From Syntrophales bacterium (GTDB lineage: Bacteria; Desulfobacterota; Syntrophia; Syntrophales; UBA2210): 44,331 nucleotides of DNA. This document shows positions 10,978 to 36,555 of this stretch, piece after piece. Position numbers and translations under genes: made by a program. Below the pieces are notes generated by a model that had not been told where the DNA came from, searched no databases, and saw only the letters and a program-made list of their open reading frames with translations. The DNA is taken from contig JAUSPK010000183.1 of assembly GCA_030655735.1 (NCBI GenBank), positions 1 through 44,331 of the forward strand. Direction: 5' to 3'. Each line of letters begins with the position of its first letter. The stretch's first letter is position 1.

Positions 10978-10992
10978 GATACGACCATCCTC

Positions 10993-12033: not shown

Positions 12034-12198
12034 ACGGCATCTCCCACTCAGACATTTTCCGTGCGCCGGGGAAGGCGCTTTTGCATAATAATACGGGCGA
12101 ACACTATCAAACCTTGGGATTTGTTGCAAGATAATAGCCGGGTGCTGTTCCCGGTCCCGGCTCGCTGGCGGGTAATGGGGATCAAGGCCGGGAGGGGT

Positions 12199-18693: not shown

Positions 18694-20109
18694 ATGAATA
18701 GAAACTTGTTTCTTCTACTGGGTGTGATCGTCTTTTCCCTGGGCGGCTGCTCCCTGGCCCCGGAATACAAAAGGCCCGAGGCTCCGATTCCTGCGGATTG
18801 GTCCAGCACCGCTGCCTACAGGGAGCCCGAGGCCTCAACCGGCACCCCGGTCCAGGTCGTGCCGGAGCTGAGGTGGCGGGAGTTCTTTGCCGATGAACGC
18901 CTTCAAAAAATTCTCGAGATTGCCTTGAGCAACAACCGCGATCTGCGCCTCGCGGCCTTGACTGTTGAAAGGGCACGGGCGCTTTACGGCATTCAAAGGG
19001 CGCAGCTGCTGCCGACGGTAGATGCGGTCGGGAGCGGAAGCAGGGAACGCGTACCTGCCGATCTTTCTTCTACCGGGAGCGCTGTGATCTCCGAAAAATA
19101 CGGTGTCAATCTCGGCATCACTTCCTGGGAGATCGACTTTTTCGGTCGTATTCGCAACCTGAAAGATCGGGCGCTGGAAGAATACCTCGCCACGGATCAG
19201 GCCCGCAGCAGTGCGCAAATTTCGCTGGTATCCGCGGTAGCAGGGGCGTATCTGGCCCTGGCTGCGGACCGGGAAGTCCTCACACTTGCGCGGTCCACGA
19301 TGGAAACACAGCAGGCCGCCTACGATTTGATGCAAAAACGTTACGATGTCGGAATCGTGAACGAACTGGAACTACGCCGATCCCAAACACAGGTTGATGC
19401 GGCCCGCGGGGACCTCGCCCGCTACATCCAACAGGTGGCGAAAGATGAAAACGCCTTGAACCTTTTACTTGGTTCACCGGCGCCGAGCAACCTGTTACCG
19501 GTTGATTTGAGCAGTGTCATTCTTCCAAGAAAGATTTCTCCCGGTATGAGCTCCGAGGTTCTTCTCCTCCGCCCCGACATCCTTCAAGCCGAACACCGAC
19601 TTAAAGGGGCCTATGCCAACATCGGTGCCGCCCGTGCTGCTTTCTTCCCCCGCATCTCCCTGACGACCGCCATCGGAACTGCAAGCGCCGATCTGTCGGG
19701 GCTCTTTAAAGACGGATCGAGTACGTGGAGTTTCGCGCCGCGGGTTGCCATACCGATTTTTGATGCCCGCACGTGGTCGGCATACAGGGTGACCAAAGTA
19801 GACAGGGAAATCGCCTTGGCCCAATACGAGAAGGCCATTCAAACGGCCTTCAGAGAAGTGGCCGACACCCTTGCCGAGCGGGGCACGATAGATCAGCAGA
19901 TAGCGGCGCAACAATCCCTGGTACATGCCGTTGCGGAAACCTATCGCCTCTCAAATAAACGCTATGCAAAGGGGATTGACAGCTACCTGGGCGTCCTTGA
20001 TGCGCAGCGATCTCTTTATGCAGCGCAGCAGGGGATCATTGCGCTCCGCCTGGCCAGACTTGCCAACCAGGTGATGCTGTACGCGGTACTGGGTGGAGGG
20101 AGTGAATAA
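18694..20109 (+). CDS. RND efflux outer membrane factor lipoprotein (NodT/OprM family)
   Basis: 471 aa with a lipobox LGGC. NodT-family repeats are present (NNRDLRLAALTVERARA and others). It starts 2 nt after the permease stop. Confidence 0.9.
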   Translation: MNRNLFLLLGVIVFSLGGCSLAPEYKRPEAPIPADWSSTAAYREPEASTGTPVQVVPELRWREFFADERLQKILEIALSNNRDLRLAALTVERARALYGIQRAQLLPTVDAVGSGSRERVPADLSSTGSAVISEKYGVNLGITSWEIDFFGRIRNLKDRALEEYLATDQARSSAQISLVSAVAGAYLALAADREVLTLARSTMETQQAAYDLMQKRYDVGIVNELELRRSQTQVDAARGDLARYIQQVAKDENALNLLLGSPAPSNLLPVDLSSVILPRKISPGMSSEVLLLRPDILQAEHRLKGAYANIGAARAAFFPRISLTTAIGTASADLSGLFKDGSSTWSFAPRVAIPIFDARTWSAYRVTKVDREIALAQYEKAIQTAFREVADTLAERGTIDQQIAAQQSLVHAVAETYRLSNKRYAKGIDSYLGVLDAQRSLYAAQQGIIALRLARLANQVMLYAVLGGGSE

Positions 20110-20160
20110 TTCTCCCCGCTTACGGTAACCGACCAGGGGCAGGGAACAATACGGCGCTTT

Positions 20161-20185
20161 GGACGGGCCGGAAACCGCCCCGTCC
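20161..20185. terminator. Stem-loop between the convergent OMF and transglycosylase genes
   Basis: ggacggg ... cccgtcc with an inner cgg-aaa-ccg helix. It has no strong T-run, so this is a weak intrinsic-terminator call. Confidence 0.3.
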
Positions 20186-20193
20186 TTCATCCG

Positions 20194-20787
20194 TTATACC
20201 CTGTCGGGCCCCGTCTTATAGCGGTTGTAGTAGGAGAAGACCTTCTTGATGTAGAAGTGTGTGGTCTTGAATGGTGGTATACCCTTATATTCCCTGACCT
20301 TTCTGCTTCCGGCGTTGTATGCCGCGAGGGCCATACTGACGTCTCCGTCGAACCGGTCGAGGAGCCGTTTAAAGTATCTAACCCCGCCGTGTATGTTATG
20401 CTCAGGATTAAAGCTGTCCTCCACACCGAGGGCCTTTGCTGTTGCGGGCATGAGCTGCATGAGCCCGCGTGCGCCTCTCCTGGAGATAGCCTTGGGATTG
20501 TAGCTCGATTCCGCCATGATGATGGCCTGTATCAGCGCAGGCTCTACTCCATAGCGATCCGATGCCTCTTGTATAATAGCAAAGAAGCGGGGGTCGACCT
20601 CTCCCGATGAAGAACTTCCCGGTGATTGAAAGGTGGGGGCTGAAGAGACTACTTCACCACTCGATATTTGAAAATGATTGTAACTGCTGAATATCTCTGG
20701 AGAAATTAAAAGCACAACCGTTCCGATGATAAATGCCATCCGGCGCATCGAAGCGGTGTGCCGGCGTAACGGCAAATCCTCGTTCAC
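20194..20787 (-). CDS. Lytic transglycosylase (SLT domain) protein
   Basis: 197 aa with an N-terminal membrane anchor or signal sequence. The SLT catalytic region reads EPALIQAIIMAESSYNPKAISRRGARGLMQLMPATA. Confidence 0.85.
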   Translation of the reverse strand: MNEDLPLRRHTASMRRMAFIIGTVVLLISPEIFSSYNHFQISSGEVVSSAPTFQSPGSSSSGEVDPRFFAIIQEASDRYGVEPALIQAIIMAESSYNPKAISRRGARGLMQLMPATAKALGVEDSFNPEHNIHGGVRYFKRLLDRFDGDVSMALAAYNAGSRKVREYKGIPPFKTTHFYIKKVFSYYNRYKTGPDRV

Positions 20788-20900
20788 GATAACCTCCTGT
20801 AATAACCGAACAGGCCCTTATTTGGTGGCGAGGGTAAAGGAATAGGAGTGATATGTCAAGAAAAAAATGCCTATTTTATGGGAACAACGAGTAATATCGG

Positions 20901-21680
20901 CTAGATAAATGTGCGTACGGGGACGCCTTTTTGCGCCAGATATTCCTTGATTTGGGCCACGGTATAGCGCTGGTAATGGACCATTGAGGCAATGAGTGCC
21001 GCATCTGCGCCCGATGAGTTGAAGACATCATACAGGTGCTGGGGCTCTCCCGCGCCTCCGGACGCGATGACCGGGATAGAAACGGCTTCGGAGAGGAGAG
21101 AGGTCAGGATGAGTTCATACCCCGCGTTCGTGCCGTCCGCGTCGATTGAATTGAGACATATCTCGCCGGCCCCCAGGTCTTGGGCCCGCCGGGCCCACTG
21201 GATGGCATCCATCGCCACCGGCGTTCTCCCGCCATGTATGTATACCTCGTACCCGGAGGGGATAGACGGGGTCTTTTCCACCCTCTTCGCGTCCATCCCC
21301 AGGACGATGCACTGGCTCCCGAATGCTTTGGCTCCCTTGTAGATGAGATCAGGATCCTCGACGGCGGCGGTATTGATGCTGATCTTTTCAGCCCCGGCGG
21401 CCAGGACGCGGTGCATGTCATCCAGGGAGCGTATACCCCCCCCCACCGAGAAGGGGATGAAGATCTCTTTTGCCACGTTCTCGACCACGTCTATAATGAT
21501 ATCCCTTTTATCGGATGAGGCGGTGATGTCGTAGAAGACCAGTTCATCCACGCCCTGTTCGTAATACTGGGCCGCCATGGCAACCGGGTCGCCTATATCG
21601 ACATTCCTCTTGAATTTGATGCCCTTGGTCGTTTTCCCCTCTCTGACATCCAGGCAGATGATGATTCTCTTACTCAGCAT
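20901..21680 (-). CDS. hisF: Imidazole glycerol phosphate synthase cyclase subunit (HisF or HisF paralogue)
   Basis: 259 aa. Near-canonical HisF segments are present: [38 protein letters not shown] and VIASGGAG. It starts 2 nt after the hisH stop. Confidence 0.9.
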
Positions 21681-21682
21681 AT

Positions 21683-22297
21683 CTATTCCCTGCCGTTCCA
21701 GCTGCAGAAGTTTTTCAATATCTGCAGACCGTGCCGGCCGCTCTTTTCGAGGTGAAATTGTGTCGCTATGACGTTACCGTGGCCGATTATAGACGCAAAT
21801 ATGAGACCGTAGTCGGTCGTCGCTATGATATCCTCCTGCTTTTCAGGCGCGGGGTAGTACGAGTGAACAAAATAGAACTGTGCCCTCGCGTCCACTCCCT
21901 CGAGGAGGGGATGGGAGCGTGCAATGGATATATCGTTCCACCCCATATGCGGAATCTTGATGCCCTCGGATCGGAACCGCTTCGCCGTGCCGGGGATTAT
22001 CCCCAGGCAGGGAGTGCCGTTATCTTCTTCACTTTCCCCCAGTATAATCTGTGCGCCCAGGCATATTCCGAGGAAGGGCTTCCCCTGCTCGATGGTCTCG
22101 CGGATCACGCCGTCAAGGCCTTCGCGCCGTATGATCTCCATCGCCTCTCCCGCGGCACCGACGCCCGGGAATATCACCCGTTCGGATGCAAGGATCTCAT
22201 CGTGCTGTTTGGTGATCCGGCACTCTACACCGATGTGTCTCAGTGCCCGTGCAACCGACGTCAGATTTCCCGCCTCATAATCGATAATAGCAATCAT
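21683..22297 (-). CDS. hisH: Imidazole glycerol phosphate synthase glutamine amidotransferase subunit (HisH or paralogue)
   Basis: 204 aa. Class I GATase triad context is present: GICLGAQ, HMGWN, FVHSYY and QFHLEKS. It starts 3 nt after the stop of the giant upstream gene. Confidence 0.9.
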
Positions 22298-22300
22298 TGT

Positions 22301-25300
22301 TTATTTGCCGTTTTCCAGGGAGTTCATGATGGCCTCCGCGATGACGTTGATTCCTTCACCCAGAAGAAATGCAACGGGGAGGGGGTCGAGATACTCGTCG
22401 TTCCACGAAACGTTGTATTCGTTGATGATATCCCTGATCTGGCCCAACTTGTCGCCGAGGACTGCTTTCTTCTCTGATGAGCTCAGGGCCTCTTTAAAGA
22501 TTATGTGGAGAAGCAGTATCTTGTCTATGAAGGCCTCCCCTTCGATGAGCGAGATAATAACAAGTGGCGCGTGATCGGATTTCCCGAGCCCCGCGTACAC
22601 GTCCCTGGTACTCACTATCGTTTTCTTCGCGCCGCTGAGCGGGATCGAAGTCTCCGCCCGTGACTTCATATGGAGAGAGATACCCCCTCTCTTCTCGATC
22701 AATATGGTGGTCGCCTCTGTCGGCGTTCCTTCATCGTCAAGGCCATCTATGGCATACAGCGTGTAGCCCCGTACATCGGAAATGACCTTCTGTAGCCTCC
22801 CGATGGTGAGGCCGCCCCTGCTTGTCAGGTTGTCGGGCGAGAAGCCGAGGTCCTTCAGCGAATCGAAGATCACACCCCGTGCGGCCTCCTCTTTTCTGCT
22901 GGTCCCTACCGTGACCGTTTTTGCCTGGTGCCTGATTGCGTCTATGGGCCTCGCCAGTTCATCGATGGCCCTGCCGAGGGAGATGTCCAGCATGTCGAGG
23001 GGCGAAGAAGAAACCTGCTTTTCCTTGAAGTCTATACGAAACTCTTCGAGGGGCAGTTTCCCTGAGGCGTATTTGAGCAGGAGTGTGATATCCGATGCCA
23101 CATCAACCCCCAGGGATGAAAAAGATCCAAGGTTTTTGCGGGCATGAAAGGGTGCAGAAAACTCGTCTATCAATTTGTGAAGACCGGGATCTGTCAGCTT
23201 TTCAACGAGAAGACCTTCCTTCGCGTCCAGTTCATCTGTCTTGAGCAGCAGCCTCTTCCTGAAGTCGCGGATAAACTCCCCGTCTTCATTGATGGTGCAG
23301 GCCGCATAATAGCCCCACAGATGTCCGGCCAGGGTGTTCAGGATGACGGACGTCGGAAAGGATGCCTTCGGCACGTGGATCACCGAATCAGCGATGCCGT
23401 CAAAGGCCGTCTCACCTTTGTCCGCGATGACAACCACCGAAGCGGCGTGTGCCTTGAAGATCAAAACCTCCTTGGCGATATCCGCTAGCACATAGTCCGG
23501 TGTCCCGGCGACGCACGCAATGATAAGAGGTTCCGAAGAGAGATCGATATGCTTTTTGTCCTCGACGATATCCGATGAGATCGTCTTGTAACACAGCTCG
23601 CTCAGCTTGATCCGTATCTCGTCCGCGGCAACCTTGTTTGGGCCGCTCCCCACAACCGCCCAGTATCTCTTCCTCCCGGCAAGCGCGCGGGCGGTTTCCC
23701 ATACATGTTCTTTCCCCGCAATCACGAGGTTCATCGCGTCGGGGGCCTTTTTGAGGCTCTCCAATACCCCGGCCGTCAGGTCATCCGGCAGGGTGCCGAG
23801 GGTCTGGGCCAGATAGAGGGCCAGGACATATCCAGCAACGATCTGGGAATAAAATGCCTTTGTCGACGCCACGGACATCTCTATGTCCCGCCCGTCGCTT
23901 GTATAAAAGACGCCGTCCGCCACATGGGTGATATCAGACTGTCTCCGGTTGACGATGGCGATCAGGTGCGCCCCCCGCTCCTTTGCCATGGCCACGGCCC
24001 TGTTGGTGTCGGTCGTTGTCCCGGATTGTGTCACCGCGATAACGAGTGTGTCCTTCATGTCTTCTTCGAGATAGAACCCGCTCAATTCAGATGCCGTCTT
24101 AGCCTCGATCGCGATGCCCAGGCCCTTTATATATGTTGAGAATGCCCCGGCGATCGCCGCGCCCGCCACAGCCGCCGTCCCCTGTCCTATCACGAAAATA
24201 TTTCGTATATCTCCCCGCGAAAGGGCACCCTTCAACCTCTGGGGGATGATATCATCCCCCAGATTGAAGGTTACCTTCGCCTTCCCGTTTCCACTGTAAT
24301 CAATATGGTGTTTGCCCCGCAGGGTCTTTTTGACAGACAAGGGCGCGTCCGTGATTTCCTTCAGGAGAAAGTGGGGATATCCTTTGCGGTCGATATCCCT
24401 CGTGGTGATCTGGGCCCTCTGGATCTTTTCATTCCCGCCTTCGAGGGGGTGCCCGTCATAACAGGATGCATGTCTCCCGCCGCCATCCTCCAGCACATAG
24501 AGCTGGCCCTTTGTCTCGGGCCTGCCGGGTATCCGTTCGACCTCCCCATCCATCTTGATGAAGCGAGGGGTGAGTTCCACGAGTCCGTACACCTCCGAAG
24601 AGAACATGTACTGGTTGTCGCACAGACCGATATAGAGCGACTGGCCGCTCCCCCTCAGTGCGAGGAAGACCTTCCCCGGTTCCAGGTTGCTCTGCATGGC
24701 GATGGCGTGAGATCCCTCAAAATCGTTCAGGGCCAGACGGAACGCCTTCTGAAGATCGCACCCCTCATAAAGATATTTTTCTATCTGAAGGGCGATGATC
24801 TTGGTGTCCGTGGTTACCCGGTGATCTATGAGCTCCGCCCCGTCTGCCTCGATTGATGTCCGAAGAGAGCGGTAGTTGTCTATATCTCCGTTGAGCGCGG
24901 CATGGATCGCCCAGTTGCCGGAGCCGTAGTGGGGATACTTCTTGACGGAGAGCGGGATTCCGGACGAGGTGTCAAGGCTATCTGCCAGGGTGAAATTGTT
25001 CACGGGATGGCAGTTTTCCACATTGATGGCCCCTACGGAGGCCCAGCGTGTGTGGGCGAGGAGCGTTTCATGCCCTGTCCCTCCAGTCATACATGCCCTG
25101 AGTATGTCGTCCGATTGGATCCTTTCCCTCAGATACCGAGTGTTTTCGCCCAAGGCCCCGGTGACGGAGGCCCGCTTGTAGGTAAAGGTCAGGAGCGGAT
25201 CGGTGCCTGAAGACAGGCCGGACAGGGTGATGGCGCCGTCCAGAAGGTCGCCGGGAGTCGTTCTCCTCAGGAAATCTTCATAGAGTCCACCGGCCTTCAG

Positions 25301-26023
25301 GGTCTGCATGATGGTGTCCAGCGACGCTCGATCCTCCGGACAGAATGATATCTCTATCCCCGCAGAGTCCCTCCCCCGGATCTCTATCCGGTCCAGTGAA
25401 TTGAGAAGCAGGTTGACCCTCCAGTATATGCCGAGACCCTCTCCGGACAGGGTCTCGCGTGCGGGACCGGCAAGGCGCATGGTCTTTTCCAGGTTGTCCA
25501 GGATATCCTTTTCCAGCGCCCACGCGGCGTCCTTCAGTACCTCGAGGGCTTCGTTGATGATCTCCATATCGCCCGTGGAAAGCCCGCTCGCGGCCTCCTC
25601 TATCAGGATATCTTCCCCCGACAGGAAGGAGTTCATTGCCTTCGACAGGGCGGTAAGGTCTGAGCTTCCATTGTGAGCGAAGAGGCCCAGTGGATCCTTT
25701 TTGAGGTCGAGGATGAGCCCTTCCAGTCTGTGTAGCAGCTCCCGGCCTCCCAGATAGTTCTGCGGGGCTATGGGGGTGGCGAGGAGGGTCGTGAGATTGT
25801 GTTTCCGGAGCTCTTCAAAGAGGGAGGCAATTGAACCGTCGGTGCGCTTTTCCCGCTGCGGTTTTATCGCGAGGATGCCCGCCAGGCCGCAGGGCAGGGT
25901 CGCCGGGGTCAGCGGAAAGATAATAACGGACCTGACCGGGGCGCGGTTCGGGTTGCGACCGATAAAAACACGCCACCGTTTCAGGCGCCGCAAAACAAGT
26001 GGTATATCTCCAGGTTTGAACAT
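22301..26023 (-). CDS. 1240-aa GlmS-like protein: class II (Ntn) glutamine amidotransferase + two SIS domains, with extra N-terminal, internal and C-terminal segments
   Basis: GlmS-type motifs occur in order: CGLAGIL (Cys at codon 45), RGRDSAG, HTRWASVG, LNGDIDNY, TDTKIIA, then SIS motifs VIGQGTAAVAG and AVTQSGTTTDT, a second SIS region (VVGSGPNKVAADEIRIKLSE), and a GlmS-like tail QAKTVTVG. About 200 further residues follow that tail. Confidence 0.8.
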   Translation of the reverse strand: MFKPGDIPLVLRRLKRWRVFIGRNPNRAPVRSVIIFPLTPATLPCGLAGILAIKPQREKRTDGSIASLFEELRKHNLTTLLATPIAPQNYLGGRELLHRLEGLILDLKKDPLGLFAHNGSSDLTALSKAMNSFLSGEDILIEEAASGLSTGDMEIINEALEVLKDAAWALEKDILDNLEKTMRLAGPARETLSGEGLGIYWRVNLLLNSLDRIEIRGRDSAGIEISFCPEDRASLDTIMQTLKAGGLYEDFLRRTTPGDLLDGAITLSGLSSGTDPLLTFTYKRASVTGALGENTRYLRERIQSDDILRACMTGGTGHETLLAHTRWASVGAINVENCHPVNNFTLADSLDTSSGIPLSVKKYPHYGSGNWAIHAALNGDIDNYRSLRTSIEADGAELIDHRVTTDTKIIALQIEKYLYEGCDLQKAFRLALNDFEGSHAIAMQSNLEPGKVFLALRGSGQSLYIGLCDNQYMFSSEVYGLVELTPRFIKMDGEVERIPGRPETKGQLYVLEDGGGRHASCYDGHPLEGGNEKIQRAQITTRDIDRKGYPHFLLKEITDAPLSVKKTLRGKHHIDYSGNGKAKVTFNLGDDIIPQRLKGALSRGDIRNIFVIGQGTAAVAGAAIAGAFSTYIKGLGIAIEAKTASELSGFYLEEDMKDTLVIAVTQSGTTTDTNRAVAMAKERGAHLIAIVNRRQSDITHVADGVFYTSDGRDIEMSVASTKAFYSQIVAGYVLALYLAQTLGTLPDDLTAGVLESLKKAPDAMNLVIAGKEHVWETARALAGRKRYWAVVGSGPNKVAADEIRIKLSELCYKTISSDIVEDKKHIDLSSEPLIIACVAGTPDYVLADIAKEVLIFKAHAASVVVIADKGETAFDGIADSVIHVPKASFPTSVILNTLAGHLWGYYAACTINEDGEFIRDFRKRLLLKTDELDAKEGLLVEKLTDPGLHKLIDEFSAPFHARKNLGSFSSLGVDVASDITLLLKYASGKLPLEEFRIDFKEKQVSSSPLDMLDISLGRAIDELARPIDAIRHQAKTVTVGTSRKEEAARGVIFDSLKDLGFSPDNLTSRGGLTIGRLQKVISDVRGYTLYAIDGLDDEGTPTEATTILIEKRGGISLHMKSRAETSIPLSGAKKTIVSTRDVYAGLGKSDHAPLVIISLIEGEAFIDKILLLHIIFKEALSSSEKKAVLGDKLGQIRDIINEYNVSWNDEYLDPLPVAFLLGEGINVIAEAIMNSLENGK

Positions 26024-26076
26024 GACTGATATCCCGTGTAAAGCTTCTCCCGTTAGCCCCTAGTGGACTGGCTCCC

Positions 26077-27684
26077 TTAACCCTTGTTGGTGTTGTACTT
26101 TAAGGAGGCCCGTATAAATTCCGTGAAGAGCGGATGGGGCCTTCTCGGTTTTGATTTGAATTCGGGATGGAACTGGCAGCCCAGAAACCACGGATGATCA
26201 GCGATCTCGACTATCTCAACGAGGTTCCCATCGGGGGCGGACCCGCTTATGCGCAGTCCCCCTTTGGTAAGGACATCTTTATAGTCGTTGTTGAATTCAT
26301 ACCGGTGCCGGTGCCGTTCACTGATCTTCTTGTGTCCGTATGCCTCGGACGCGAAGGAGGGCTTTTCGAGAACACAGGGGTAAGCCCCCAGCCGCATGGT
26401 TCCCCCCTTATCAGAGATCTCTCTCTGTTCAGGAAGGAAGTCGATCACCGGATTCGGCGTATCGGCGTCGAATTCAGTGCTGTTGGACTTTTCCAGTTTG
26501 CAGACATTCCGTGCGTATTCAATCACCGCCATCTGCATCCCCAGGCAGATTCCAAAGAAGGGAATCCCCTGTGTCCGCGCGTAGGTGACCGTCTGAATCA
26601 TCCCCTCTATACCCCGTTTTCCGAATCCCCCCGGCACCAGGATGCCGTCGATGTCGTCAAATTGACTGTCGATCCCCGTCTGCTCTAAGTGTTCCGAGTC
26701 AATGAACCGGAGCGTAACACGGCACTCGCTGGGGAGGCCGCCGTGGACCAGCGCCTCATTCAGACTCTTGTAAGAGTCCTTCCAGTCGACATATTTCCCC
26801 ACTATGGCAATGATAACCTCGTGAGAGGGATTTTTCAGTTTGCGAAGCACCTCTTCCCAATCACTAAGGTCCGGCTGGCCGGTCCAGATATTGAGAAGAT
26901 CGACGATCTTCTGATCCACCCCTTCCTGATGATATATGATGGGAACTTCGTAGATGTACTCCACGTCCTTGGCGGTGAAGACCGCCCCCGGTTCCACGTT
27001 GCAGAAGAGGGATATCTTCTCCCGGATCTCTTTCGACAGGAACTCCTCCGTCCGGCACAGGAGGATGTCGGGCTGGATGCCGATCTCCCGGAGGGCCTTG
27101 ACGCTGTGCTGGGTGGGTTTTGACTTCACTTCTCCGGCGGCCTTGAGGTAGGGGACCCAGGTGAGATGAATGAATATCGCATTTTCTTTCCCCACTTCAT
27201 TCTTGAACTGCCGTATGGCCTCCAGAAAGGGGAGGCTTTCGATATCTCCGACGGTCCCCCCGATCTCCACGATGGCCACATCGCTATCGTTTGCCGCCGC
27301 CTTGATATAATCCTTTATCTCATTGGTAATATGGGGGATTACCTGAACGGTGCCCCCCAGATACTCCCCGCGCCGCTCCTTTGATATGACCGAGAAGTAT
27401 ACCTGCCCGGTGGTCAGGTTGTTTTCCTTGCCGAGGTGGCTGTCGGTGAAGCGCTCGTAATGTCCCAGGTCCAGATCGGTTTCCGTGCCGTCATCGGTCA
27501 CGAAGACCTCTCCATGCTGGAAGGGGTTCATTGTTCCGGGATCGACGTTGATGTAGGGATCCAGTTTTTGATGAGCGATCTTAAGCCCCCGGCTTTCCAG
27601 GAGGGCTCCTATGGAGGCTGCCGCAAGACCCTTGCCGAGGGAGGAAAGCACACCGCCGGTGATAAAGATAAATTTCGTTCGCAT
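26077..27684 (-). CDS. pyrG: CTP synthase
   Basis: 535 aa. The N-terminus is [19 protein letters not shown], the GATase region reads [16 protein letters not shown], and QFHPEFKS is also present. Confidence 0.95.
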
Positions 27685-27802
27685 ATATTTGCCTTCCCTT
27701 GTCTGTGTTGCCGTAAATAATCATGGGACCCGGCTTATGTCAATATACTTTTTCTCGCAATGTCCAGGACCCCCGACGTGCTGCTGTCAGACGACTGTCA
27801 CC

Positions 27803-29305
27803 TTACGCGGGAAGATCGGCATAATCGGTCTGAATCGCCCCGCGGGGGCAGACGGCGGTACAGGTGTAACAGAGCAGGCACTTCGATTCATCTATGGTAA
27901 AGACCTCCCCGTTGCGTGTTATCGCCTCCTGGGGGCAGTTCTCAATGCATTTATCACAGAGGATGCAGGTGCCGCAGCTGATACATCGTTCGATATCACC
28001 TGCTTCTCCGCCGAAATATACGGTGCGGATCCTGTTTTTGGAAACCGGGTTCTTCTTCGGATATAGAAATTCTTCGTTATTGAGAGAAGCATGGATCTGC
28101 ATGGCCGCCAGGCGTCCCATCCCGATCGCGTCGCTTATGAGTCCGGGCGCGATGATATCTCCCGCCCCGTACACCTTTGGATCGCTGCTCCGGAAGGACT
28201 TTTCGCCCGTTACCATGTAGCCACGCTCATCCAAAAAGACCGATTCAGGGAGAAACGAGGTGTCCGGTGCCTCGCCGATGCTGAAAAAGATGACATCGGC
28301 CTTTATGGTGGTTTTGTCGGTGAGGTAGATGGTCTTGGCTGTAACCTTCTCTACCTTTTTCGGCCACAGGATCTGTGTCCCAAGACTGGTTGCCATCTCC
28401 AGTTCCTTCCCGAATGCCAGGGGTTTCTGGATATCGAGGGCTGTCACCTTTTTCGCGCCCATCCGCCAGGATTCGCAGGCCATATCCATGCCGACGTTCC
28501 CCGCGCCTATGATGACCACCTCGCGTCCGCTCAGGTCCATCGGTTTCCCATCGTTGATGTCCATCAGAAATTGCAGGCCCGACAGGATTCTCTCGCCGCC
28601 CGGATACGGGATCCTCTTTGTCAGCTGTGCGCCCGTGGTGACCAGGACGGCATCGCTCTCATCATGGAGTTTCTGAAGGGTATCACGGTCTATAGTCTGG
28701 TTTTTCTGCAGTTCTATCGGCAGGGAGAAGATCCGGGCAATATCTCTATCCAGGGCCTCGTCGGAGAGGCGATCTCTGGGTATTGCCCGCCGTACCTTTC
28801 CCCCGGGGTTATTCCCGGAGTCGTATATCCTGACACGGTACCCGCGCCTCGAGAGCTGCCATGCCGCCGACAGACCGGCAGGGCCTGCGCCTATGATGGA
28901 GATCAGCTCCTCCCTTTTCTTTCCGAGCATTTTCGGCGCGAAATCGGGGTAATATTCCCTGGCAACCCGCTGGATTTCAACGGGGCCGTCCAGCATATTT
29001 CTGCTGCACCCGTCCATACAGGGGGCTGGGCAGACCGTACCGCATACCGACATCCTGAAGGGGGTGTACTCATCCATCAGGGTCTGGGCTTCGATGATCT
29101 TTTCGTCTTTGATCAGGTTCAGAAAGATCGGCGTGGGAATTCCGGTCGGACAGTTATAGGCGCACGGCGGGGTGAGATCGACGTGGAGGGGTTTGCTGGT
29201 CTTTATGTTCATCCCCGGGGTGTAGAGTTTACCAAAAGGTCGGGCGCCCTTCTTGGTGATTTTGGTAAAGTCGCCGGGGGAAATCCGTGTAAGATCTATC
29301 TCCAT
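27803..29305 (-). CDS. GltD-like NAD(P)H-dependent FAD oxidoreductase subunit with C-terminal 2x[4Fe-4S] ferredoxin domain
   Basis: 500 aa. N-terminal Cys clusters are present (CAYNCPTG, CGTVCPAPCMDGC). The dinucleotide fold is IIGAGPAGLSAAWQLSRRG with a second VVIIGAGNVGMD. The C-terminus carries CISCGTCILCDKCIENCP and CLLCYTCTAVCP. Confidence 0.85.
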   Translation of the reverse strand: MEIDLTRISPGDFTKITKKGARPFGKLYTPGMNIKTSKPLHVDLTPPCAYNCPTGIPTPIFLNLIKDEKIIEAQTLMDEYTPFRMSVCGTVCPAPCMDGCSRNMLDGPVEIQRVAREYYPDFAPKMLGKKREELISIIGAGPAGLSAAWQLSRRGYRVRIYDSGNNPGGKVRRAIPRDRLSDEALDRDIARIFSLPIELQKNQTIDRDTLQKLHDESDAVLVTTGAQLTKRIPYPGGERILSGLQFLMDINDGKPMDLSGREVVIIGAGNVGMDMACESWRMGAKKVTALDIQKPLAFGKELEMATSLGTQILWPKKVEKVTAKTIYLTDKTTIKADVIFFSIGEAPDTSFLPESVFLDERGYMVTGEKSFRSSDPKVYGAGDIIAPGLISDAIGMGRLAAMQIHASLNNEEFLYPKKNPVSKNRIRTVYFGGEAGDIERCISCGTCILCDKCIENCPQEAITRNGEVFTIDESKCLLCYTCTAVCPRGAIQTDYADLPA

Positions 29306-29329
29306 ATCCCGGGCGTATTCCGCCAGCGC

Positions 29330-29947
29330 CTAGCTCAGGAAGGCACTGTCAGCGTCGTCGATATCCGAGAAGCTCGCGCCGATTCCCAGCTGATGGGGCT
29401 CGATGTGCCCCCTCACATAGATTATTCCTCCGTGGATACCGGTACCGATGTCCTGCCCCACGGGGGAACCTGCCACGTTGTTCAGGTTGAGGACCACCAG
29501 CTTTCCGCCCGCCATGTATTCCCCGCAGTAGTCCTTCGTCGTGCCGCCGATGATGAGCCAGGGGACCTGGTCCAGATATTCCTTCATGTGTATCCCGGCG
29601 CGGTACTCGACGTCCCCCTTTATAAAGACCTTCCCTCCCCGCATGGAATGGCCGGGGATCTCTCCGGCCTTCCCGTGAATGACGATCTTGCCGGCATTCA
29701 TGGTGTTTCCCACGCCGTCCTGCGCGTTTCCGAATACCGTTACGCGGGAACCGTTCATGAAGGCCCCGAGATCCTGCCCCGGGGTTCCGTATACCTCCAG
29801 CAGGGCGTCGCTGTTCAGCCCTCCGCCAATGTATCGTTGCCCCAGGATGTTCTTCAGGAGGATCCTGTTTTCACCTTTGGCGAGATATCCCCGTATATGT
29901 CTGTTCAGGGATTTATAATACAGTCCCTTTGTGTCTATCGTCAGCAT
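29330..29947 (-). CDS. Glutamate synthase GXGXG-domain subunit (GltB C-terminal domain homologue)
   Basis: The ORF track gives 29330..30190. The upstream 81 codons overlap the preceding gene, and the ATG at 29947 (MLTIDTKGLYYKSLN) lies 5 nt after its stop. Repeated beta-helix GXGXG-type segments are present (VFGNAQDGVGNTMNAGKIVIHGKAG, GGKVFIKGD). Confidence 0.85.
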   Translation of the reverse strand: MLTIDTKGLYYKSLNRHIRGYLAKGENRILLKNILGQRYIGGGLNSDALLEVYGTPGQDLGAFMNGSRVTVFGNAQDGVGNTMNAGKIVIHGKAGEIPGHSMRGGKVFIKGDVEYRAGIHMKEYLDQVPWLIIGGTTKDYCGEYMAGGKLVVLNLNNVAGSPVGQDIGTGIHGGIIYVRGHIEPHQLGIGASFSDIDDADSAFLS

Positions 29948-29952
29948 GTTAT

Positions 29953-31476
29953 TTATGCACCGGCGTGTTTGATTTCTAAGATTCTCAGTTCTTCTTCGTT
30001 CAACCCGACCCCTCTGAGCCTGTCGCGATTGCTTCGGAGGGCCTCTATGGCGCTGATGCCCATCGATCCCATCAGCTCCTTCATCTCTTCCCCCCACGCG
30101 TGGAGGAGATTTTTGAGGGCCTGCGTCGCCTGCTCGACATCGATCCGTTCCGCAAGACCCGGCTTGTTCGTTGTGATCCCGTAGGCGCACTTACCGCTGA
30201 AGCACCTCTGGCATAACCCGCATCCGAGCGCTACCAGGACAGGTGTTCCGATATAGACGGCATCAGCACCCAGGCAGATGGCCTTCAGTACATCGGACGA
30301 GCACATGATCCCCCCCGAGGCTACGAGGCTGACGGTATCCCTGATCCCCTCTTCACGCAGGCGTGTGTCGGCGGCGGATATGGCGAGCTCGATGGGAATT
30401 CCCGTGCTCTGCCGTATCTGAAGCGGGGTCGCCCCCGTGCCGCCCCTGAATCCGTCGATGGCTATGATATCCGCGCCGGCCCGCGCAACCCCGCTCACTA
30501 TCGGGGCAACGTTATGCACGGCGGCGATCTTGACGGAGACGGGGACCTTGTATTCCATGGCCTCCTTGATTGCGTAGATGAGCTGCCGCAGGTCCTCGAT
30601 GGAGTATATGTCGTGGTGGGGGGCGGGTGACAGGGCGTCGCTCCCCTCTGGTATCATCCTCGTCTCCGAGATGGCCTTCAACACCTTTTCGCCGGGCAGG
30701 TGGCCCCCAATCCCCGGTTTCGCGCCCTGGCCTATCTTGATCTCCACGGCCGCGGCCGATTTCAGGTAGTCTTCGCTGACGCCGAACCGCCCCGAGGCGA
30801 CCTGGACGATCGTGTTTTCCCCGTATATCCTCAGATCCTTGAAAAAGCCGCCTTCCCCCGTGTTCCAGTACGTCCCGACATCCTTCGTCGCACGGGCCTC
30901 CGCCTCCTGGACCCGTTTGTTCACGGCGCCGAAACTCATGGCCCCGAACATGATCGGAACGTCCAGTTTGAGCTGAGGCCCGATCTCTTCCCCGTACTGT
31001 GCGGGTTTTCTTCCCAGATACCGACGAATCTCCATCGGCTCTCTCAGGGGATCGATGGAGGGATTGGTTACCTGGCAGGCATCGAACATGATATGGTCGA
31101 AGTATCGCTTCTGCGGCCCTGTCGCGCCGTTTCCGACTAGTAGAACGCCCCCCTCATCCCCCGCCTGCCGCCAGATGTTACTTGCGTAATCGGATGTCCA
31201 GTATCCGTGAGAGGTATGCATCGGCTGAAACTCGATGTGGATCGCGCCCTCGGGGCACATCTTCACGCACCGCTGGCAGGAATTGCACGCGGTGAGATTT
31301 GCCCGGGGCCGGTAGCGCACCTCCCCATCATCATCCTTTACCGGGTGCATGGATATCTCTCCGAAGGAGCACTCCTTCGAGCAGATACTGCAACCGTTTT
31401 TGTAGTCGCACCTTTCGATATCAAACTCGGGGTGAAAGGCGGGGATCGTCTTCCAGTTGTTTTCCATGCCGTTCAT
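29953..31476 (-). CDS. Glutamate synthase FMN/[3Fe-4S] domain subunit with N-terminal ferredoxin-like domain (archaeal-type GltB domain 2)
   Basis: 507 aa. The N-terminus carries CNSCQRCVKMCP. The FMN barrel shows GEGG, GAKPGIGGHLPG, IDGFRGGTGA, VASGGI and CLGADAVYIGT. Its start overlaps the upstream stop (ATGA). Confidence 0.9.
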   Translation of the reverse strand: MNGMENNWKTIPAFHPEFDIERCDYKNGCSICSKECSFGEISMHPVKDDDGEVRYRPRANLTACNSCQRCVKMCPEGAIHIEFQPMHTSHGYWTSDYASNIWRQAGDEGGVLLVGNGATGPQKRYFDHIMFDACQVTNPSIDPLREPMEIRRYLGRKPAQYGEEIGPQLKLDVPIMFGAMSFGAVNKRVQEAEARATKDVGTYWNTGEGGFFKDLRIYGENTIVQVASGRFGVSEDYLKSAAAVEIKIGQGAKPGIGGHLPGEKVLKAISETRMIPEGSDALSPAPHHDIYSIEDLRQLIYAIKEAMEYKVPVSVKIAAVHNVAPIVSGVARAGADIIAIDGFRGGTGATPLQIRQSTGIPIELAISAADTRLREEGIRDTVSLVASGGIMCSSDVLKAICLGADAVYIGTPVLVALGCGLCQRCFSGKCAYGITTNKPGLAERIDVEQATQALKNLLHAWGEEMKELMGSMGISAIEALRSNRDRLRGVGLNEEELRILEIKHAGA

Positions 31477-32537
31477 CAGACCGCTTCCTTATATCCTTCG
31501 AGCATATCGATCATAACCGGTTCACCGCCCCTCGGTGACCATATCCTGTCCACCTCTGGGGACAGAAACCGTATGCTGCACTCTTCGGATGACGCGTAGT
31601 AGGTGTTCCCCACCTGTGCGCACACGACGGGACGAAGCTTATTACGGTCATTGAGGACTATCGCGCCGTCCCGATGTGTCAGGACGATGCCGAAGGGGCC
31701 GTTGACAATGGCGGTGCCGTAAATCTGTCTGAGATACCGGTCCTTCTCGTCGCCTCTCCTGTCGATTTCCTCCCAGAGGGCCGGAGCCATAACATAGCAG
31801 GCATCCCTCTTAGAGAGTCCGTCTCTCCTGGTGAGCTTGTCGTATATATACGAAATGACCTCCGTGTCCGTCTGCAGGAGACACTGGTATCCGTTCATCT
31901 CAAGCCACCGCACATTGGTGCCGTAGCTGGTTATCTCGCCGTTGTGGACGACCGTTTTGTCGAGGATCGTAAAGGGGTGAGCGCCGCCCCACCATCCGGG
32001 CGTATTGGTGGGGAACCGGTTGTGGGCCACCCACATATAGCCCTGGTAGTCTTCGATGCGGAAGTAGTCCGCAATATCTTCGGGATACCCCATTCCCTTG
32101 AATACGCCGACATCCTTCCCTGAAGAGACCACGAAGGCATCTTGCATAGAGTTGATGTGCATGACGATCTCGACGATATAATCCTCCTCCGTCTGCTGCG
32201 GAGAGAGGAACTCCTCTATGGGCTTGAGGAAATACCGCTTGAAGTAGGGTCCCCGGGGTATGCGGTCGTTCGGATAGACCGGTATCTGCTCCGACTGGTA
32301 TACATTCGCCCTGCTCTGGAGGTAGTCTTCGACGGCTGAAACGGCCGGGTTGTGCCGGTCCCCCTCATACATGATATGGAAGGCGTATTTGTCCCTGTTT
32401 TCGGGATACGCGCCGTAGACGGCAAAGCCGCCCCCCAGGCCGTTTCCCCGGTCCCTCTGGATACGGATGGCCTCCTGTATATGGCTTCCATCAATACGGT
32501 GTCCGTCGGTATTGATAATCCCCACTATCCCGCACAT
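31476..32537 (-). CDS. Glutamate synthase class II glutamine amidotransferase subunit (GltB domain 1 homologue)
   Basis: The ORF track gives 31476..32624. The ATG at 32537 gives MCGIVGIINTDG, with the nucleophile Cys directly after Met, and AAGGGG lies 6-7 nt upstream. Also present are VAHNRFPTNT, VVHNGEI and TDTEVISY. Confidence 0.9.
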   Translation of the reverse strand: MCGIVGIINTDGHRIDGSHIQEAIRIQRDRGNGLGGGFAVYGAYPENRDKYAFHIMYEGDRHNPAVSAVEDYLQSRANVYQSEQIPVYPNDRIPRGPYFKRYFLKPIEEFLSPQQTEEDYIVEIVMHINSMQDAFVVSSGKDVGVFKGMGYPEDIADYFRIEDYQGYMWVAHNRFPTNTPGWWGGAHPFTILDKTVVHNGEITSYGTNVRWLEMNGYQCLLQTDTEVISYIYDKLTRRDGLSKRDACYVMAPALWEEIDRRGDEKDRYLRQIYGTAIVNGPFGIVLTHRDGAIVLNDRNKLRPVVCAQVGNTYYASSEECSIRFLSPEVDRIWSPRGGEPVMIDMLEGYKEAV

Positions 32538-32577
32538 GACATACCCCTTCGTAAATAAAAATAAGCACCGATAGTGT

Positions 32578-33287
32578 CTATTGTCCTTCGGCTGAGACAG
32601 ACGCCCTCCGGTGCAGATCAACAAGCCATAAAAAATTAGAATATATCCTTTTTGCCTGGGTGTAAAGTGTCCCTTCTATTGTTTCAAAGGTTCGCACGCA
32701 CCCATCGCGGGAAGGCATCGTCTCCGCCCAGTCGAGCAACATGTCCCGCGTCATCTCAATATGAAACTGGAGGGCGTACGCGTTGCGGTATCTGAAGGAC
32801 TGGTTCGGGCATGCCCCCGAGGTCGCGAGGAGTTTTCCCCCGTACGGTATGTCGAAGGTGTCCTCGTGCCACTGAAAGACCTGCATCGTGCCGGGGATAC
32901 CTTCGAACAGGATATCCTTGCTTCCGGCATTTGTGAGGGAAACGCTCCCCCCCCCACCTCCTTGTGGGAGGCCTTGACGACGGGAGCGTAACAGGCCTTG
33001 GCGATCAGCTGGGCGCCAAGGCAGATGCCGAGTGTGGGGATGTTGGCATTGATAACCCTTCTGAGAAACTCGGTTTCCTCACGCAGAAAGGGATATTTGC
33101 CCTCCTCGTAGACATTCATCGGTCCGCCCATCGATACAAGGGCATCAAAGCCGCCGATATCATCCGGGAATGGATCACCCTTATAAGCTTGAACGGTTCG
33201 AATCTCCGCCTCTACTCGGCCCAAAAAACTCCCAAGCGTTCCCGGCCCTTCAGCCTCCGCATGTTCAACAATCAACACCCTTGTCAT
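32578..33287 (-). pseudogene. Class I glutamine amidotransferase (GuaA-like stand-alone GATase) interrupted by a frameshift in a G9 run
   Basis: ORF 32751..33287 encodes the N-terminal half (GICLGAQLIAKA with the nucleophile Cys). ORF 32578..32886, in another frame, encodes the C-terminal half (FQWHEDTFDIP, LQFHIE). The frames meet at the homopolymer at 32947-32955, and adding one nucleotide there gives a continuous protein of about 236 aa. Confidence 0.8.
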
Positions 33288-33300
33288 AATATATATTCGG

Positions 33301-34632
33301 TTACAGTATCGACAGATACTTGTCTATCTCGTAGTCACTGACGTGTGTCCGATACTGATCCCACTCCATTTTTTTGTTTGCTATGAACTTCTCGAAGATA
33401 TGATCGCCCAGTGCCTCCCTCACGAGATCGCTCTGTTCGGTAATAGCGATGGCCTCTCCCAGGCTACCGGGGAGGGAGTCGATGCCGTTGGCCTCACGTT
33501 CGGCAGCGGTCATCTCAAAGATGTCCTCTTCAATCGGGTCGGCCAGCGAGTATCCTTCCTCCATACCCTTCATGCCTGCCGCCAGCATTACCGCAAAGGC
33601 GAGGTACGGGTTGCAGGCGGGATCGGGACAGCGGAACTCCATACGAGTGGCGTTTGCCTTGCCCGGTTTGTACATCGGAACGCGGATGAGGGCGGAGCGG
33701 TTTCTCCGTGCCCATGAGATGTACACGGGGGCCTCATAGCCCGGCACCAGCCTCTTGTATGAATTAACCCACTGCGCAACGATCGATGACAGCTCTTTGG
33801 CATGTTTGAGCAGCCCCGCGATGTAGCATTTTCCTGTTTTAGACAGATAATATTTGTCGCCCGGATCGTAGAAGGCATTGCCCCCCTCTCCGAAGAGGGA
33901 TTGGTGCACGTGCATGCCGCTTCCGTTTTCGCCGAAGATGGGCTTCGGCATGAACGTGGCGTACACGCCGTGCTGCATGGCCACCTCTTTAACGGTCAGA
34001 CGGTATGTCATCGCCGCGTCGGCCATCGCAAGGGCCTCCGTATAGCGCAGATCGATCTCATGCTGGCTGGGAGCAACCTCGTGGTGGCTGTACTCCACAA
34101 TAATCCCCATGGATTCCAGGGCCGTGATCGTATCGCGCCGAAGATCGCTGGCGACATCCAGGGGGGTCAGGTCAAAGTATCCCCCTCGATCGAGGGGTTC
34201 GGTTCCCTCCGAATTTTTGAAATAGAAGAATTCAAGTTCCGGGCCCACATTCAGGGTATACCCCATATCCGCGGCCTTTTTAAGATTTCTCTTGAGCGCC
34301 CAGCGGGGGTCCCCTTCGTACGGGGTGCCGTCCGGTTTCAGGATATCGCAGAACATACGGGCGACATTCTCATCCCCGCTTGCTCGCCAGGGGAGAACCA
34401 CAAAGGTGCTCGGGTCGGGCATCGCCACCATATCGCTCTCTTCGATCCGCGCGAACCCTTCTATGGACGAGCCGTCGAAGCCCATGCCCTCTTCAAAGGC
34501 GAGCTCCAGCTCCCGGGGCGAGATGGCGAAGCTCTTGAGAACACCGAGAACATCCGTGAACCACAGGCGGACAAACTTTACATTCTTCTCCTTTACCTGT
34601 TTCAATACGTGTTCTTTGTCTTTTCCAGCCAT
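33301..34632 (-). CDS. glnA: Glutamine synthetase type I (443-aa, GSI-alpha-like)
   Basis: 443 aa with VRLWFTDVLG, FDGSSIEGF, KPIFGENGSGMHVHQSL and NRSALIRVP motifs. A GGGAGGG Shine-Dalgarno sits 7 nt upstream. Confidence 0.95.
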   Translation of the reverse strand: MAGKDKEHVLKQVKEKNVKFVRLWFTDVLGVLKSFAISPRELELAFEEGMGFDGSSIEGFARIEESDMVAMPDPSTFVVLPWRASGDENVARMFCDILKPDGTPYEGDPRWALKRNLKKAADMGYTLNVGPELEFFYFKNSEGTEPLDRGGYFDLTPLDVASDLRRDTITALESMGIIVEYSHHEVAPSQHEIDLRYTEALAMADAAMTYRLTVKEVAMQHGVYATFMPKPIFGENGSGMHVHQSLFGEGGNAFYDPGDKYYLSKTGKCYIAGLLKHAKELSSIVAQWVNSYKRLVPGYEAPVYISWARRNRSALIRVPMYKPGKANATRMEFRCPDPACNPYLAFAVMLAAGMKGMEEGYSLADPIEEDIFEMTAAEREANGIDSLPGSLGEAIAITEQSDLVREALGDHIFEKFIANKKMEWDQYRTHVSDYEIDKYLSIL

Positions 34633-34687
34633 CTTTTTTCCCTCCCATACACGACAGGATTTGTCTTATGTTTCCCGTATACCACAA

Positions 34688-34703
34688 AGCAACATCGATG
34701 CCA
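34688..34703 (-). promoter_or_regulatory. Sigma-54 (-24/-12) promoter of glnA
   Basis: The reverse strand reads cTGGCATcgatgTTGCTt, with exact GG-N10-GC spacing and TTGCT at -12. The -12 element is about 55 nt upstream of the glnA ATG. Confidence 0.7.
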
Positions 34704-34800
34704 GCACGTACCGCAACGTGACAAGGCAAGGCATGCGCTTGATATATTGGGGGTTTTTGTCGAAGAAACCGAAGGCCGATGCGCCCAGTTTTATGATCAG

Positions 34801-34817
34801 GGTACATATTTGTAGGA
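34801..34817. promoter_or_regulatory. Candidate enhancer (UAS) site, copy 1 of a shared 17-bp motif
   Basis: ggtacatatttgtagga has an imperfect palindromic core GTACA-N4-TGTAG and lies about 105 nt upstream of the glnA -24 element. It matches 15/17 with 41771-41787 and, by transitive hand comparison, is also similar to 36447-36463. Confidence 0.5.
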
Positions 34818-34837
34818 TAAAAACGCTGTGACTACCT

Positions 34838-36400: not shown

Positions 36401-36446
36401 ATAAGACTCGTTCCCTCGCGTAGAGTAGGATTTTGCTTGGAATAAT

Positions 36447-36463
36447 GTTACCAGATTGTAGGA
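36447..36463. promoter_or_regulatory. Copy 3 of the 17-bp motif, upstream of the activator gene
   Basis: gttaccagattgtagga matches 14/17 to 41771-41787. It is centred about 55 nt upstream of the activator start codon (36400). Confidence 0.4.
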
Positions 36464-36555
36464 TTTAACGGCCCGAAAGTCAAGTCAGAACGGCAGTGAC
36501 AGCGACTATTTTTTGCCACACGCTGTTTTGTGTCTTAGATACGCAATATTTCCAA

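Follow-up and report, generated by a model that had tools for sequence, protein, structure and literature searches.

Glucosamine-6-phosphate synthase (GlmS) is the entry enzyme to UDP-N-acetylglucosamine (UDP-GlcNAc), and thus to peptidoglycan and lipopolysaccharide, and it serves both as a model of ammonia channelling and as an antibiotic target. Its known control is exerted by the glmS ribozyme, by the small RNAs GlmY and GlmZ, by GlmR and, in eukaryotes, by UDP-GlcNAc feedback. Two N-terminal nucleophile (Ntn) amidotransferases, PurF and GltB, are made as proenzymes; the propeptide of Bacillus subtilis PurF has 11 residues and that of the large subunit GltB about 36–43. Here we describe a gene of a Syntrophales bacterium (contig JAUSPK010000183.1; the whole stretch of 44,331 nucleotides that was analysed is called the window) whose 1240-aa product carries a GlmS core and is about double the usual GlmS length. 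With a probability of roughly 70%, this gene is the organism's glucosamine-6-phosphate synthase (EC 2.6.1.16) in a long form, as we infer from its residues and its relatives. Such a double-length form of GlmS is previously undescribed; searches of the literature for a long GlmS, and for glmS in Syntrophus or Smithella, returned no relevant paper.

In the mechanism that we propose, both active sites are intact, namely the Ntn glutaminase (Cys45 with its Arg, Trp, Asn-Gly and Asp partners) and the isomerase of two SIS units (Lys806, Glu809, His825 and Lys1035). Glutamine would be hydrolysed at Cys45, and the ammonia would pass to fructose-6-phosphate (Fru-6-P) bound in the SIS domain, beneath the conserved C-tail. 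For the glutaminase to work, a clade-specific extension of about 45 aa would need to be cleaved off first, presumably autocatalytically through the Cys, as in PurF and GltB. Three modules shared by the long forms, a 150-aa insert, a 110-aa insert and a 200-aa C-terminal domain, are carried on the core of about 600 aa and may serve regulation or assembly. The parts of the gene, from its start to its stop, are the following.

22301–26023, minus strand: ORF (open reading frame) of the long-form GlmS, complete, 1240 aa plus stop, ATG start
25892–26023, minus strand: N-terminal extension (putative propeptide), residues 1–44, with conserved motifs and an invariant P37
25889–25891, minus strand: codon 45, TGC, the predicted N-terminal nucleophile Cys (Cys1 of E. 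coli GlmS), in an invariant C45-G46-x-x-G49
25409–25861, minus strand: helical insertion 1, about residues 55–205, placed in the glutaminase domain after strand beta-1 and before helix alpha-1
24389–25408, minus strand: class-II (Ntn) glutaminase core, residues 206–545, with Pfam GATase_6/7 and invariant residues
23282–24388, minus strand: isomerase domain (two SIS units), residues 546–914; Pfam SIS at 607–736, NCBIfam glmS alignment to 914
22943–23281, minus strand: helical insertion 2, about residues 915–1027; helices in the AlphaFold2 (AF2) model (model residues 847–989), no Pfam match
22895–22942, minus strand: GlmS-type C-tail, D1028-A-I-R-H-Q-A-K1035-T-V-T-V-G-T-S-R1043, invariant or nearly so throughout
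22304–22894, minus strand: C-terminal alpha/beta domain, residues 1044–1240, with a weakly GAF/PAS-like fold; mean AF2 confidence (predicted local distance difference test, pLDDT) 90.5

Catalytic core of the long form

The original prediction, made from the letters of the window, had recognised all GlmS landmarks in order in a protein of about twice the GlmS length, and the positions of the ORF and of the motifs confirm this. The N-terminal part holds C45 (TLPCGLAGIL), RGRDSAG (216–222), HTRWASVG (324–331) and LNGDIDNY (377–384); the C-terminal part holds TQSGTTTDT (665–673), VASTKAF (718–724), IRIKLSELCY (803–812), KKH (823–825) and HQAKTVTVG (1032–1040). About 200 residues had been said to follow the GlmS-type C-terminus, and 200 were counted after G1040. 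The claim of two SIS domains needs a qualification. Pfam gives a single SIS domain (607–736) besides a GATase_6/7 match, in which GATase_6 is weak; the second SIS subdomain is visible only in the alignment to GlmS and in the predicted structure. No Pfam family matched any of the extra segments.

An assembly artefact, against which the original prediction had cautioned, is ruled out, because homologues of similar length were recovered from numerous independent contigs in more than one archive. Among the homologues listed by the protein search, 119 of 120 exceed 1100 aa (most have 1218–1293) at 53–100% identity. They derive from NCBI, ENA, JGI and Logan and belong mostly to metagenome-assembled genomes of Syntrophales or other 'Deltaproteobacteria'.

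Catalytic residues were mapped in E. coli numbering through a HMMER alignment to human GFAT1, BLASTP to E. coli GlmS and an alignment of 48 family members. In the glutaminase, Cys1, Arg26, Arg73, Trp74, His86, Asn98, Gly99 and Asp123 of E. coli correspond to C45, R218, R326, W327, H339, N378, G379 and D406. In the isomerase, Thr302, Gln348, Ser349, Thr352, Lys485, Glu488, His504 and Lys603 correspond to T616, Q666, S667, T670, K806, E809, H825 and K1035. All of these catalytic and binding residues are invariant columns among the 48 members, the phosphate-binding loop T665-Q-S-G-T-T670 is invariant in the long-form family, and the same catalytic motifs are retained in 15 distant long-form members of other phyla. 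Compared with the E. coli enzyme, Ser303 is replaced by A617 and Ser347 by T665, and His77 is not kept. When the protein is held against the definition of GlmS, the glutamine-site residues and the two-SIS catalytic set are present, with A617 for Ser303 as the exception; a Cys directly behind the initiator Met, an AKSVTVE tail as the true C-terminus and a length of 600–700 aa are absent.

The predicted structure points the same way. An AF2 model of residues 45–1240 has a pLDDT of 83 and a predicted TM-score (pTM) of 0.72, and the PDB folds that match it best, at E about 1e-27, are those of E. coli GlmS and human GFAT1 in full length. Against isolated GlmS isomerase domains, the TM-score normalised by target length reaches 0.83–0.88. 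The pLDDT of the C-tail is low, which is consistent with a mobile tail or lid.

N-terminal extension and additional modules

The nucleophile Cys had been placed at codon 45 without an adjacent start codon, and indeed the preceding codon is CCC. Upstream of Cys45, the only in-frame ATG, GTG or TTG codons are codon 1 (ATG) and codon 11 (TTG), so at least 34 and most likely 44 residues precede it. The extension carries a W-R-(I/V)-x-I-G-R-x-P motif and an I-I-F-P motif that ends about 8 residues ahead of the Cys. In the alignment of 48 members P37 is invariant, while G22 and F36 are conserved in at least 90%, and an extension of about 45 aa is found in nearly all Syntrophales loci. Distant long forms show how the protein begins in its absence: about 42 of 56 diverse full-length members start with Met-Cys-Gly and lack the extension (39 flagged by script and three read by eye from the listing), and about 11 of the 56 representatives carry an extension ending in (I/L)(I/L)FP...CG. 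Within the order, a Syntrophaceae locus (L023:4406-8101, plus strand) starts with MCGF, has stop codons just upstream and is without the extension; here the propeptide was lost, or was never gained.

Cys45 aligns with the Met-Cys start of the distant long forms and of E. coli GlmS, and it can be taken as the Ntn nucleophile because these ~42 members and L023 begin with Met-Cys-Gly. On the alignments, the extension is specific to a subclade, of Syntrophales type. It looks like a propeptide: it is translated and kept by selection, and the fold can do without it. The original prediction, in which the extension would have to be removed to free the Ntn Cys, is supported by its conservation at the protein level, with P37 invariant; removal itself would follow the precedent of the known proenzymes. 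A literature search found no report of a propeptide for a GlmS-type enzyme, and to our knowledge the long form would be the first GlmS-type proenzyme.

A lipoprotein signal peptide was considered for the extension, in view of its basic N-region followed by a short hydrophobic stretch and the Cys, and rejected. Position -1 is occupied by P, F, N, Y, C or H in place of G, A or S; the hydrophobic part, short and Pro-rich, does not form a proper core, and most family members start with Met-Cys.

Alternatively, the extension may never be removed, and the glutaminase would then be inactive, leaving an ammonia-dependent synthase or a sensor of sugar phosphate or glutamine. The missing start codon beside Cys45, a conservation of the extension beyond the needs of a disposable spacer and the sensor-like C-terminal domain would all fit this idea. 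Nevertheless, a dead glutaminase is hard to reconcile with the invariance of the whole glutamine-binding set and of Trp327, the equivalent of the channel residue Trp74, and in most family members, as in L023, the same downstream architecture follows a free Met-Cys start. We regard a permanently retained extension as very unlikely.

Behind the Cys, the core is expanded at three places. The original prediction had estimated about 145 extra residues between the Cys and RGRDSAG. The distance from C45 to R218 is 173 residues, compared with 25 from Cys1 to Arg26 in E. coli, which makes insertion 1 about 146–148 aa long. It is modelled by AF2 as long helices with pLDDT mostly of 85–94, and it contains a D165-x-x-W168-x-x-x-x-D173 motif; E154, D165, W168 and D173 are invariant in the 48 members, and the motif is also kept in distant phyla. 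An addition that the original prediction had overlooked, the fourth, is the helical insert of about 110 aa ahead of the C-tail. From H825 to K1035 there are 210 residues, compared with 99 from H504 to K603 in E. coli. Insertion 2 displaces the conserved C-tail, and every long-form member retrieved with residues 891–1240 as query has it.

The third module is the C-terminal domain, modelled as an antiparallel sheet with flanking helices. Searches of Pfam and of PDB sequences with this domain, both as a single sequence and as a profile, gave no match, and at the sequence level the domain is new. Foldseek against the PDB returned mostly GAF, fRMsr, LOV and dCache sensor domains, with a best E of 5.6e-3 and none at or below 1e-3; the GAF and fRMsr matches lie at E 0.01–0.1. 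Across phyla Y1090, S1121, R1122, G1131, K1133, G1147, D1150 and E1202 are invariant, and because of this invariance a binding pocket is suggested. The domain probably binds a ligand in a regulatory role. All three extra modules are probably regulatory or assembly modules, and the long-form GlmS is probably regulated allosterically. As a separate observation, residues 1085–1172 of the domain align to residues 115–198 of E. coli GlmS by BLASTP at E 0.85, which is probably chance.

The spread of the long form was followed with an exhaustive phmmer search in which only residues 891–1240 (insertion 2, tail and C-terminal domain) served as query. At E <= 1e-3 this gave 407 cluster representatives, 231 of which lie at E <= 1e-10. 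The three extra modules are common to no fewer than 230 separate protein clusters of 1125–1290 aa, with Syntrophales, Planctomycetota and Candidatus Xenobia among the names given. Full-length members of this set measure 1125–1277 aa, with identity down to 28%, and the few that are named belong to Planctomycetota, Candidatus Xenobia or an unclassified 'bacterium'. Because full-length members diverge this far and occur in several phyla, the double-length architecture is, on sequence evidence, old and multi-phylum. Homologues are named 'SIS domain-containing protein' at NCBI or glmS at JGI. The description of the protein as uncharacterised in the original prediction agrees with the NCBI name, merely 'SIS domain-containing protein', and with a score far under the GlmS cut-offs.

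Gene neighbourhoods of the long form

To place the gene among its neighbours, 80 Syntrophales loci were fetched and the window neighbours were mapped onto them; partners were typed across the 80 loci by clustering of flanking ORFs, NCBIfam and tblastn mapping. Neighbour counts refer to 67 loci with enough 3′ flank or to 43 well-flanked loci, in which each side of the gene extends for 6 kb or more. Hexosamine-pathway genes, in the form of glmM, a 420-aa GlmU-LbH-like gene or a nagB-like gene, occur in 31 of the 43. Over all 80 loci, glmM is found in 21 (TIGR01455, 572 bits, above cut-off) and the nagB-like gene in 14, with guaA and gdhA also among the commonest partners. The 420-aa protein adjoins the long form in 46 Syntrophales loci (for example L074:6661-7923, L041:6676-7959 and L019:6566-7834, all plus strand). 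It has no Pfam match, and its N-terminal 230 aa show a weak likeness, at 36 bits, to the left-handed-helix acetyltransferase domain of GlmU; it may possibly be a stand-alone glucosamine-1-phosphate acetyltransferase. In a neighbour-joining (NJ) tree the deepest branch, the basal locus L077, reads long GlmS, GlmU-like gene, glmM, and a large Smithella/Syntrophus sister clade has the hexosamine linkage and no hisHF.

Outside Syntrophales, two loci from genomes of about 2–2.7 Mb (L083:7495-22178 and L089:5558-19735, the latter on a 2.07-Mb contig that is possibly circular, its name ending in '_c') have glmM and acpS on either side of the long GlmS, in the order rplM-rpsI-glmM-[long GlmS]-acpS-yjeF-alr-tsaE-tsaB-rimI-tsaD-groES-groEL. 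We take this slot to be that of glmS in actinobacteria (Mycobacterium tuberculosis Rv3443c to Rv3417c). Other distant members lie in assorted housekeeping contexts with no conserved partner and no hisHF. Neither the window nor the flanking DNA of the 80 loci, about 1.2 Mb in all, yielded a canonical GlmS.

Several observations weigh against the assignment as the organism's GlmS. The protein shares only 24% identity with E. coli GlmS by BLASTP (E 8e-28), and it reaches 231.4 bits with TIGR01135 (cut-off 418.05) and 253 with NF001484 (cut-off 381), these curated models aligning to residues 316–914 only. Ser303 has become Ala and His77 is lost, and the GlmS-type tail (1032–1040) is internal instead of forming the C-terminus. 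The fold matches behind the GAF-like assignment of the C-terminal domain are non-significant, the best having the E of 5.6e-3 given above. Within the clade of the window the gene lacks hexosamine genes at its side, and in the window its neighbours are pyrG and hisHF; a canonical glmS residing in the same genome, if present, would favour a specialised paralogue. Such a paralogue would use another ketose phosphate, or would be a second, condition-specific synthase of glucosamine-6-phosphate (GlcN-6-P) beside the canonical GlmS; the scores under the curated cut-offs, the change of S303 to A617, the three extra modules and the position of the window gene in a nitrogen-assimilation block, not among cell-wall genes, all agree with it. 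Nevertheless it is unlikely, as the sugar-site and catalytic residues for the conversion of Fru-6-P to GlcN-6-P are all invariant, the hexosamine linkage holds in the majority of the well-flanked loci, L083 and L089 place the gene between glmM and acpS, and the fetched flanks hold no canonical glmS. The same evidence speaks against the original prediction that this is not a housekeeping glmS: the catalytic residues of both sites are invariant, the conserved neighbours are hexosamine-pathway genes, and the glmM-acpS position in the two distant loci opposes it further.

Directly downstream of the long-form GlmS, the window carries two histidine-biosynthesis genes.

21683–22297, minus strand: hisH, glutaminase subunit of imidazole glycerol phosphate (IGP) synthase; TIGR01855, 224.7 bits, cut-off 105.4
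20901–21680, minus strand: hisF, cyclase subunit; TIGR00735, 359 bits, cut-off 294.55

The spacing read from the sequence agrees with the coordinates: 3 nt lie between the stop codon of the 1240-aa ORF (22301–22303) and the hisH ATG at 22297, and 2 nt between the hisH end (21683) and the hisF start (21680). From this coupling the original prediction had suggested a new pathway or a physical complex in which the giant amidotransferase acts with HisH/HisF. The tight same-strand spacing is in favour of the idea, as is the persistence of the arrangement in 15 related loci, with the order pyrG, long form, hisH, hisF stable inside the clade. Synteny largely refutes it. hisH-hisF lies directly downstream of the long form in 15 of the 67 loci and is missing there in 52, and it is likewise missing in the basal lineage and in all distant phyla examined; in the NJ tree all hisHF-linked loci fall in one clade, which also has glnA-GOGAT-pyrG upstream (GOGAT, glutamate synthase), and the basal and sister lineages are without the linkage. 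Nine of the 43 well-flanked loci carry hisHF, with zero overlap with the 31 that have hexosamine genes, and the long form has the same size and motifs where hisHF lies elsewhere. Homologues of the same length are thus for the most part not syntenic with hisHF. In addition, HisH and HisF both score above the IGP synthase cut-offs, and HisF fails those of WbuZ (261.8 bits, cut-off 299.7) and AglZ/HisF2 (215.5 bits, cut-off 310). Because they exceed the curated equivalog cut-offs, the two genes are, by sequence, ordinary histidine-biosynthesis genes. The adjacency reflects the local order of genes in one clade and is not evidence of a new pathway, and a joint machine with HisH/HisF is hardly credible. 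Glycan amidation of the WbuY/WbuZ type by HisHF was likewise rejected on the curated cut-offs.

The upstream side of the window is occupied by genes of nitrogen metabolism.

26077–27684, minus strand: pyrG (CTP synthase), NF003792, 860 bits, 53 nt upstream of the long GlmS
27803–34632, minus strand: upstream block of glnA, a short class-I glutamine amidotransferase (GATase), a split glutamate synthase and a GltD-like flavoprotein, conserved in the hisHF-linked clade
33301–34632, minus strand: glnA
34688–34703, minus strand: sigma-54-like -24/-12 element TGGCATCGATGTTGCT, one mismatch, about 56 nt upstream of glnA

The genes glnA, short GATase, split GOGAT, GltD-like flavoprotein, pyrG, long GlmS, hisH and hisF form a same-strand run with short gaps. 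Within the fetched Syntrophales loci, pyrG is the most frequent neighbour of the long form: by clustering of flanking ORFs it occurs in 44 of the 80 loci, adjoining the long form in 37 of those, and it lies within 38 of the 43 well-flanked loci; of 58 loci, 31 have it directly beside the long form. The simplest reading of the run from glnA to hisF is a clade-specific cluster of glutamine-producing and glutamine-consuming enzymes. This cluster is possibly regulated by nitrogen status. A gene for a GAF-sigma54 activator (34838–36400) adjoins the sigma-54-like element; matches to the sigma-54 motif over the whole window are not above chance, and only the position of the site at glnA is suggestive. 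A scan of 19800–37500 for promoters and terminators gave counts equal to chance and nothing usable within the operon.

Other observations on these neighbours may be added. The glutamate synthase (27803–32624, minus strand) is split in archaeal style into a 382-aa GATase_2 piece and FMN-domain, GXGXG and GltD-like pieces; the FMN protein has an N-terminal 2x[4Fe-4S] region and the GltD-like flavoprotein a C-terminal ferredoxin domain. The truncated class-I GATase right after glnA (32751–33287, minus strand) has 178 aa, covers the first half only of models of ~235–250 positions and is conserved in related loci. Further nitrogen and envelope genes lie at 9595–13263 (minus strand), 6814–7968 (plus strand) and 39066–40415 (plus strand); they comprise the pair of an ammonia-dependent asnA and a class-II aminoacyl-tRNA synthetase, the outer-membrane lipid A deacylase LpxR, a GH3 NagZ-like hydrolase and an NADP-glutamate dehydrogenase. 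In Smithella-type loci (L037:11868-12893, plus strand, and 16 others), a conserved ORF of about 342 aa without NCBIfam match stands directly downstream of the long GlmS and precedes gdhA, the GlmU-like gene, glmM and the nagB-like gene. Upstream of the long form, loci of Smithella/Syntrophus type (L034:7296-7607, plus strand, and about 40 others) have a conserved set of moaC, a 171-aa protein and a 103-aa Fis-like helix-turn-helix protein that resembles the C-terminus of NtrC.

Taken jointly, propeptide, modules and neighbours could also be read as a distinct, zymogen-controlled amidotransferase machine that is not isofunctional with GlmS. The propeptide could gate activation, and the two helical inserts could remodel the oligomer or the ammonia channel; the C-terminal 200 aa could bind a metabolite or carry out an additional reaction, and in the window's clade the enzyme could be coupled to PyrG and HisHF under nitrogen control. 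We consider this joint reading decidedly unlikely and prefer that of a long-form GlmS in its usual metabolic role. If the latter is true, a widespread but unannotated form with some 600 additional residues, a C-terminal domain like those of sensors and a clade-specific propeptide would add a further, protein-built mode to the control of GlmS. Moreover, because pipelines label the long form 'SIS domain-containing protein', metabolic reconstructions of Syntrophales and other long-form lineages may wrongly list glmS as missing.

Comparison with known systems

The C-terminal domain resembles GAF/PAS sensors (fRMsr, PtsP GAF, PDE GAF and NreA), its top Foldseek matches, in having a sheet with flanking helices. 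No match attains E <= 1e-3, the TM-scores are 0.3–0.48 and no sequence match exists, so that this is a resemblance and not membership. As for the downstream genes, WbuY/WbuZ and AglZ/HisF2 are also HisH-HisF pairs without hisA beside sugar-modifying enzymes. The window's HisF differs from them in scoring above the cut-off of true HisF and below those of WbuZ and AglZ.

The PurF and GltB proenzymes likewise have a translated extension ahead of the catalytic Cys of a class-II glutaminase domain. The extension of the long form is similar in length to the GltB propeptide, and relatives without it start with Met-Cys. However, its sequence resembles neither the PurF nor the GltB propeptide, its motifs W-R-I-x-I-G-R-x-P and I-I-F-P are peculiar to the clade of the window, and its cleavage is putative.

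The closest system is GlmS itself (E. coli, 608 aa; PDB 2J6H, 1JXA and 4AMV) together with eukaryotic GFAT1 (PDB 6R4E and others), which have the same core of an Ntn glutaminase and two SIS units. The order of motifs, equivalents of all key catalytic residues and the AK(S/T)VTV tail are shared with the long form; these proteins are its best structural matches, and the long form is linked to glmM in many genomes. Compared with GlmS, the long form is doubled in length, carries three extra modules and has its tail in an internal position, and the clade of the window adds a 44-aa extension before the Cys.

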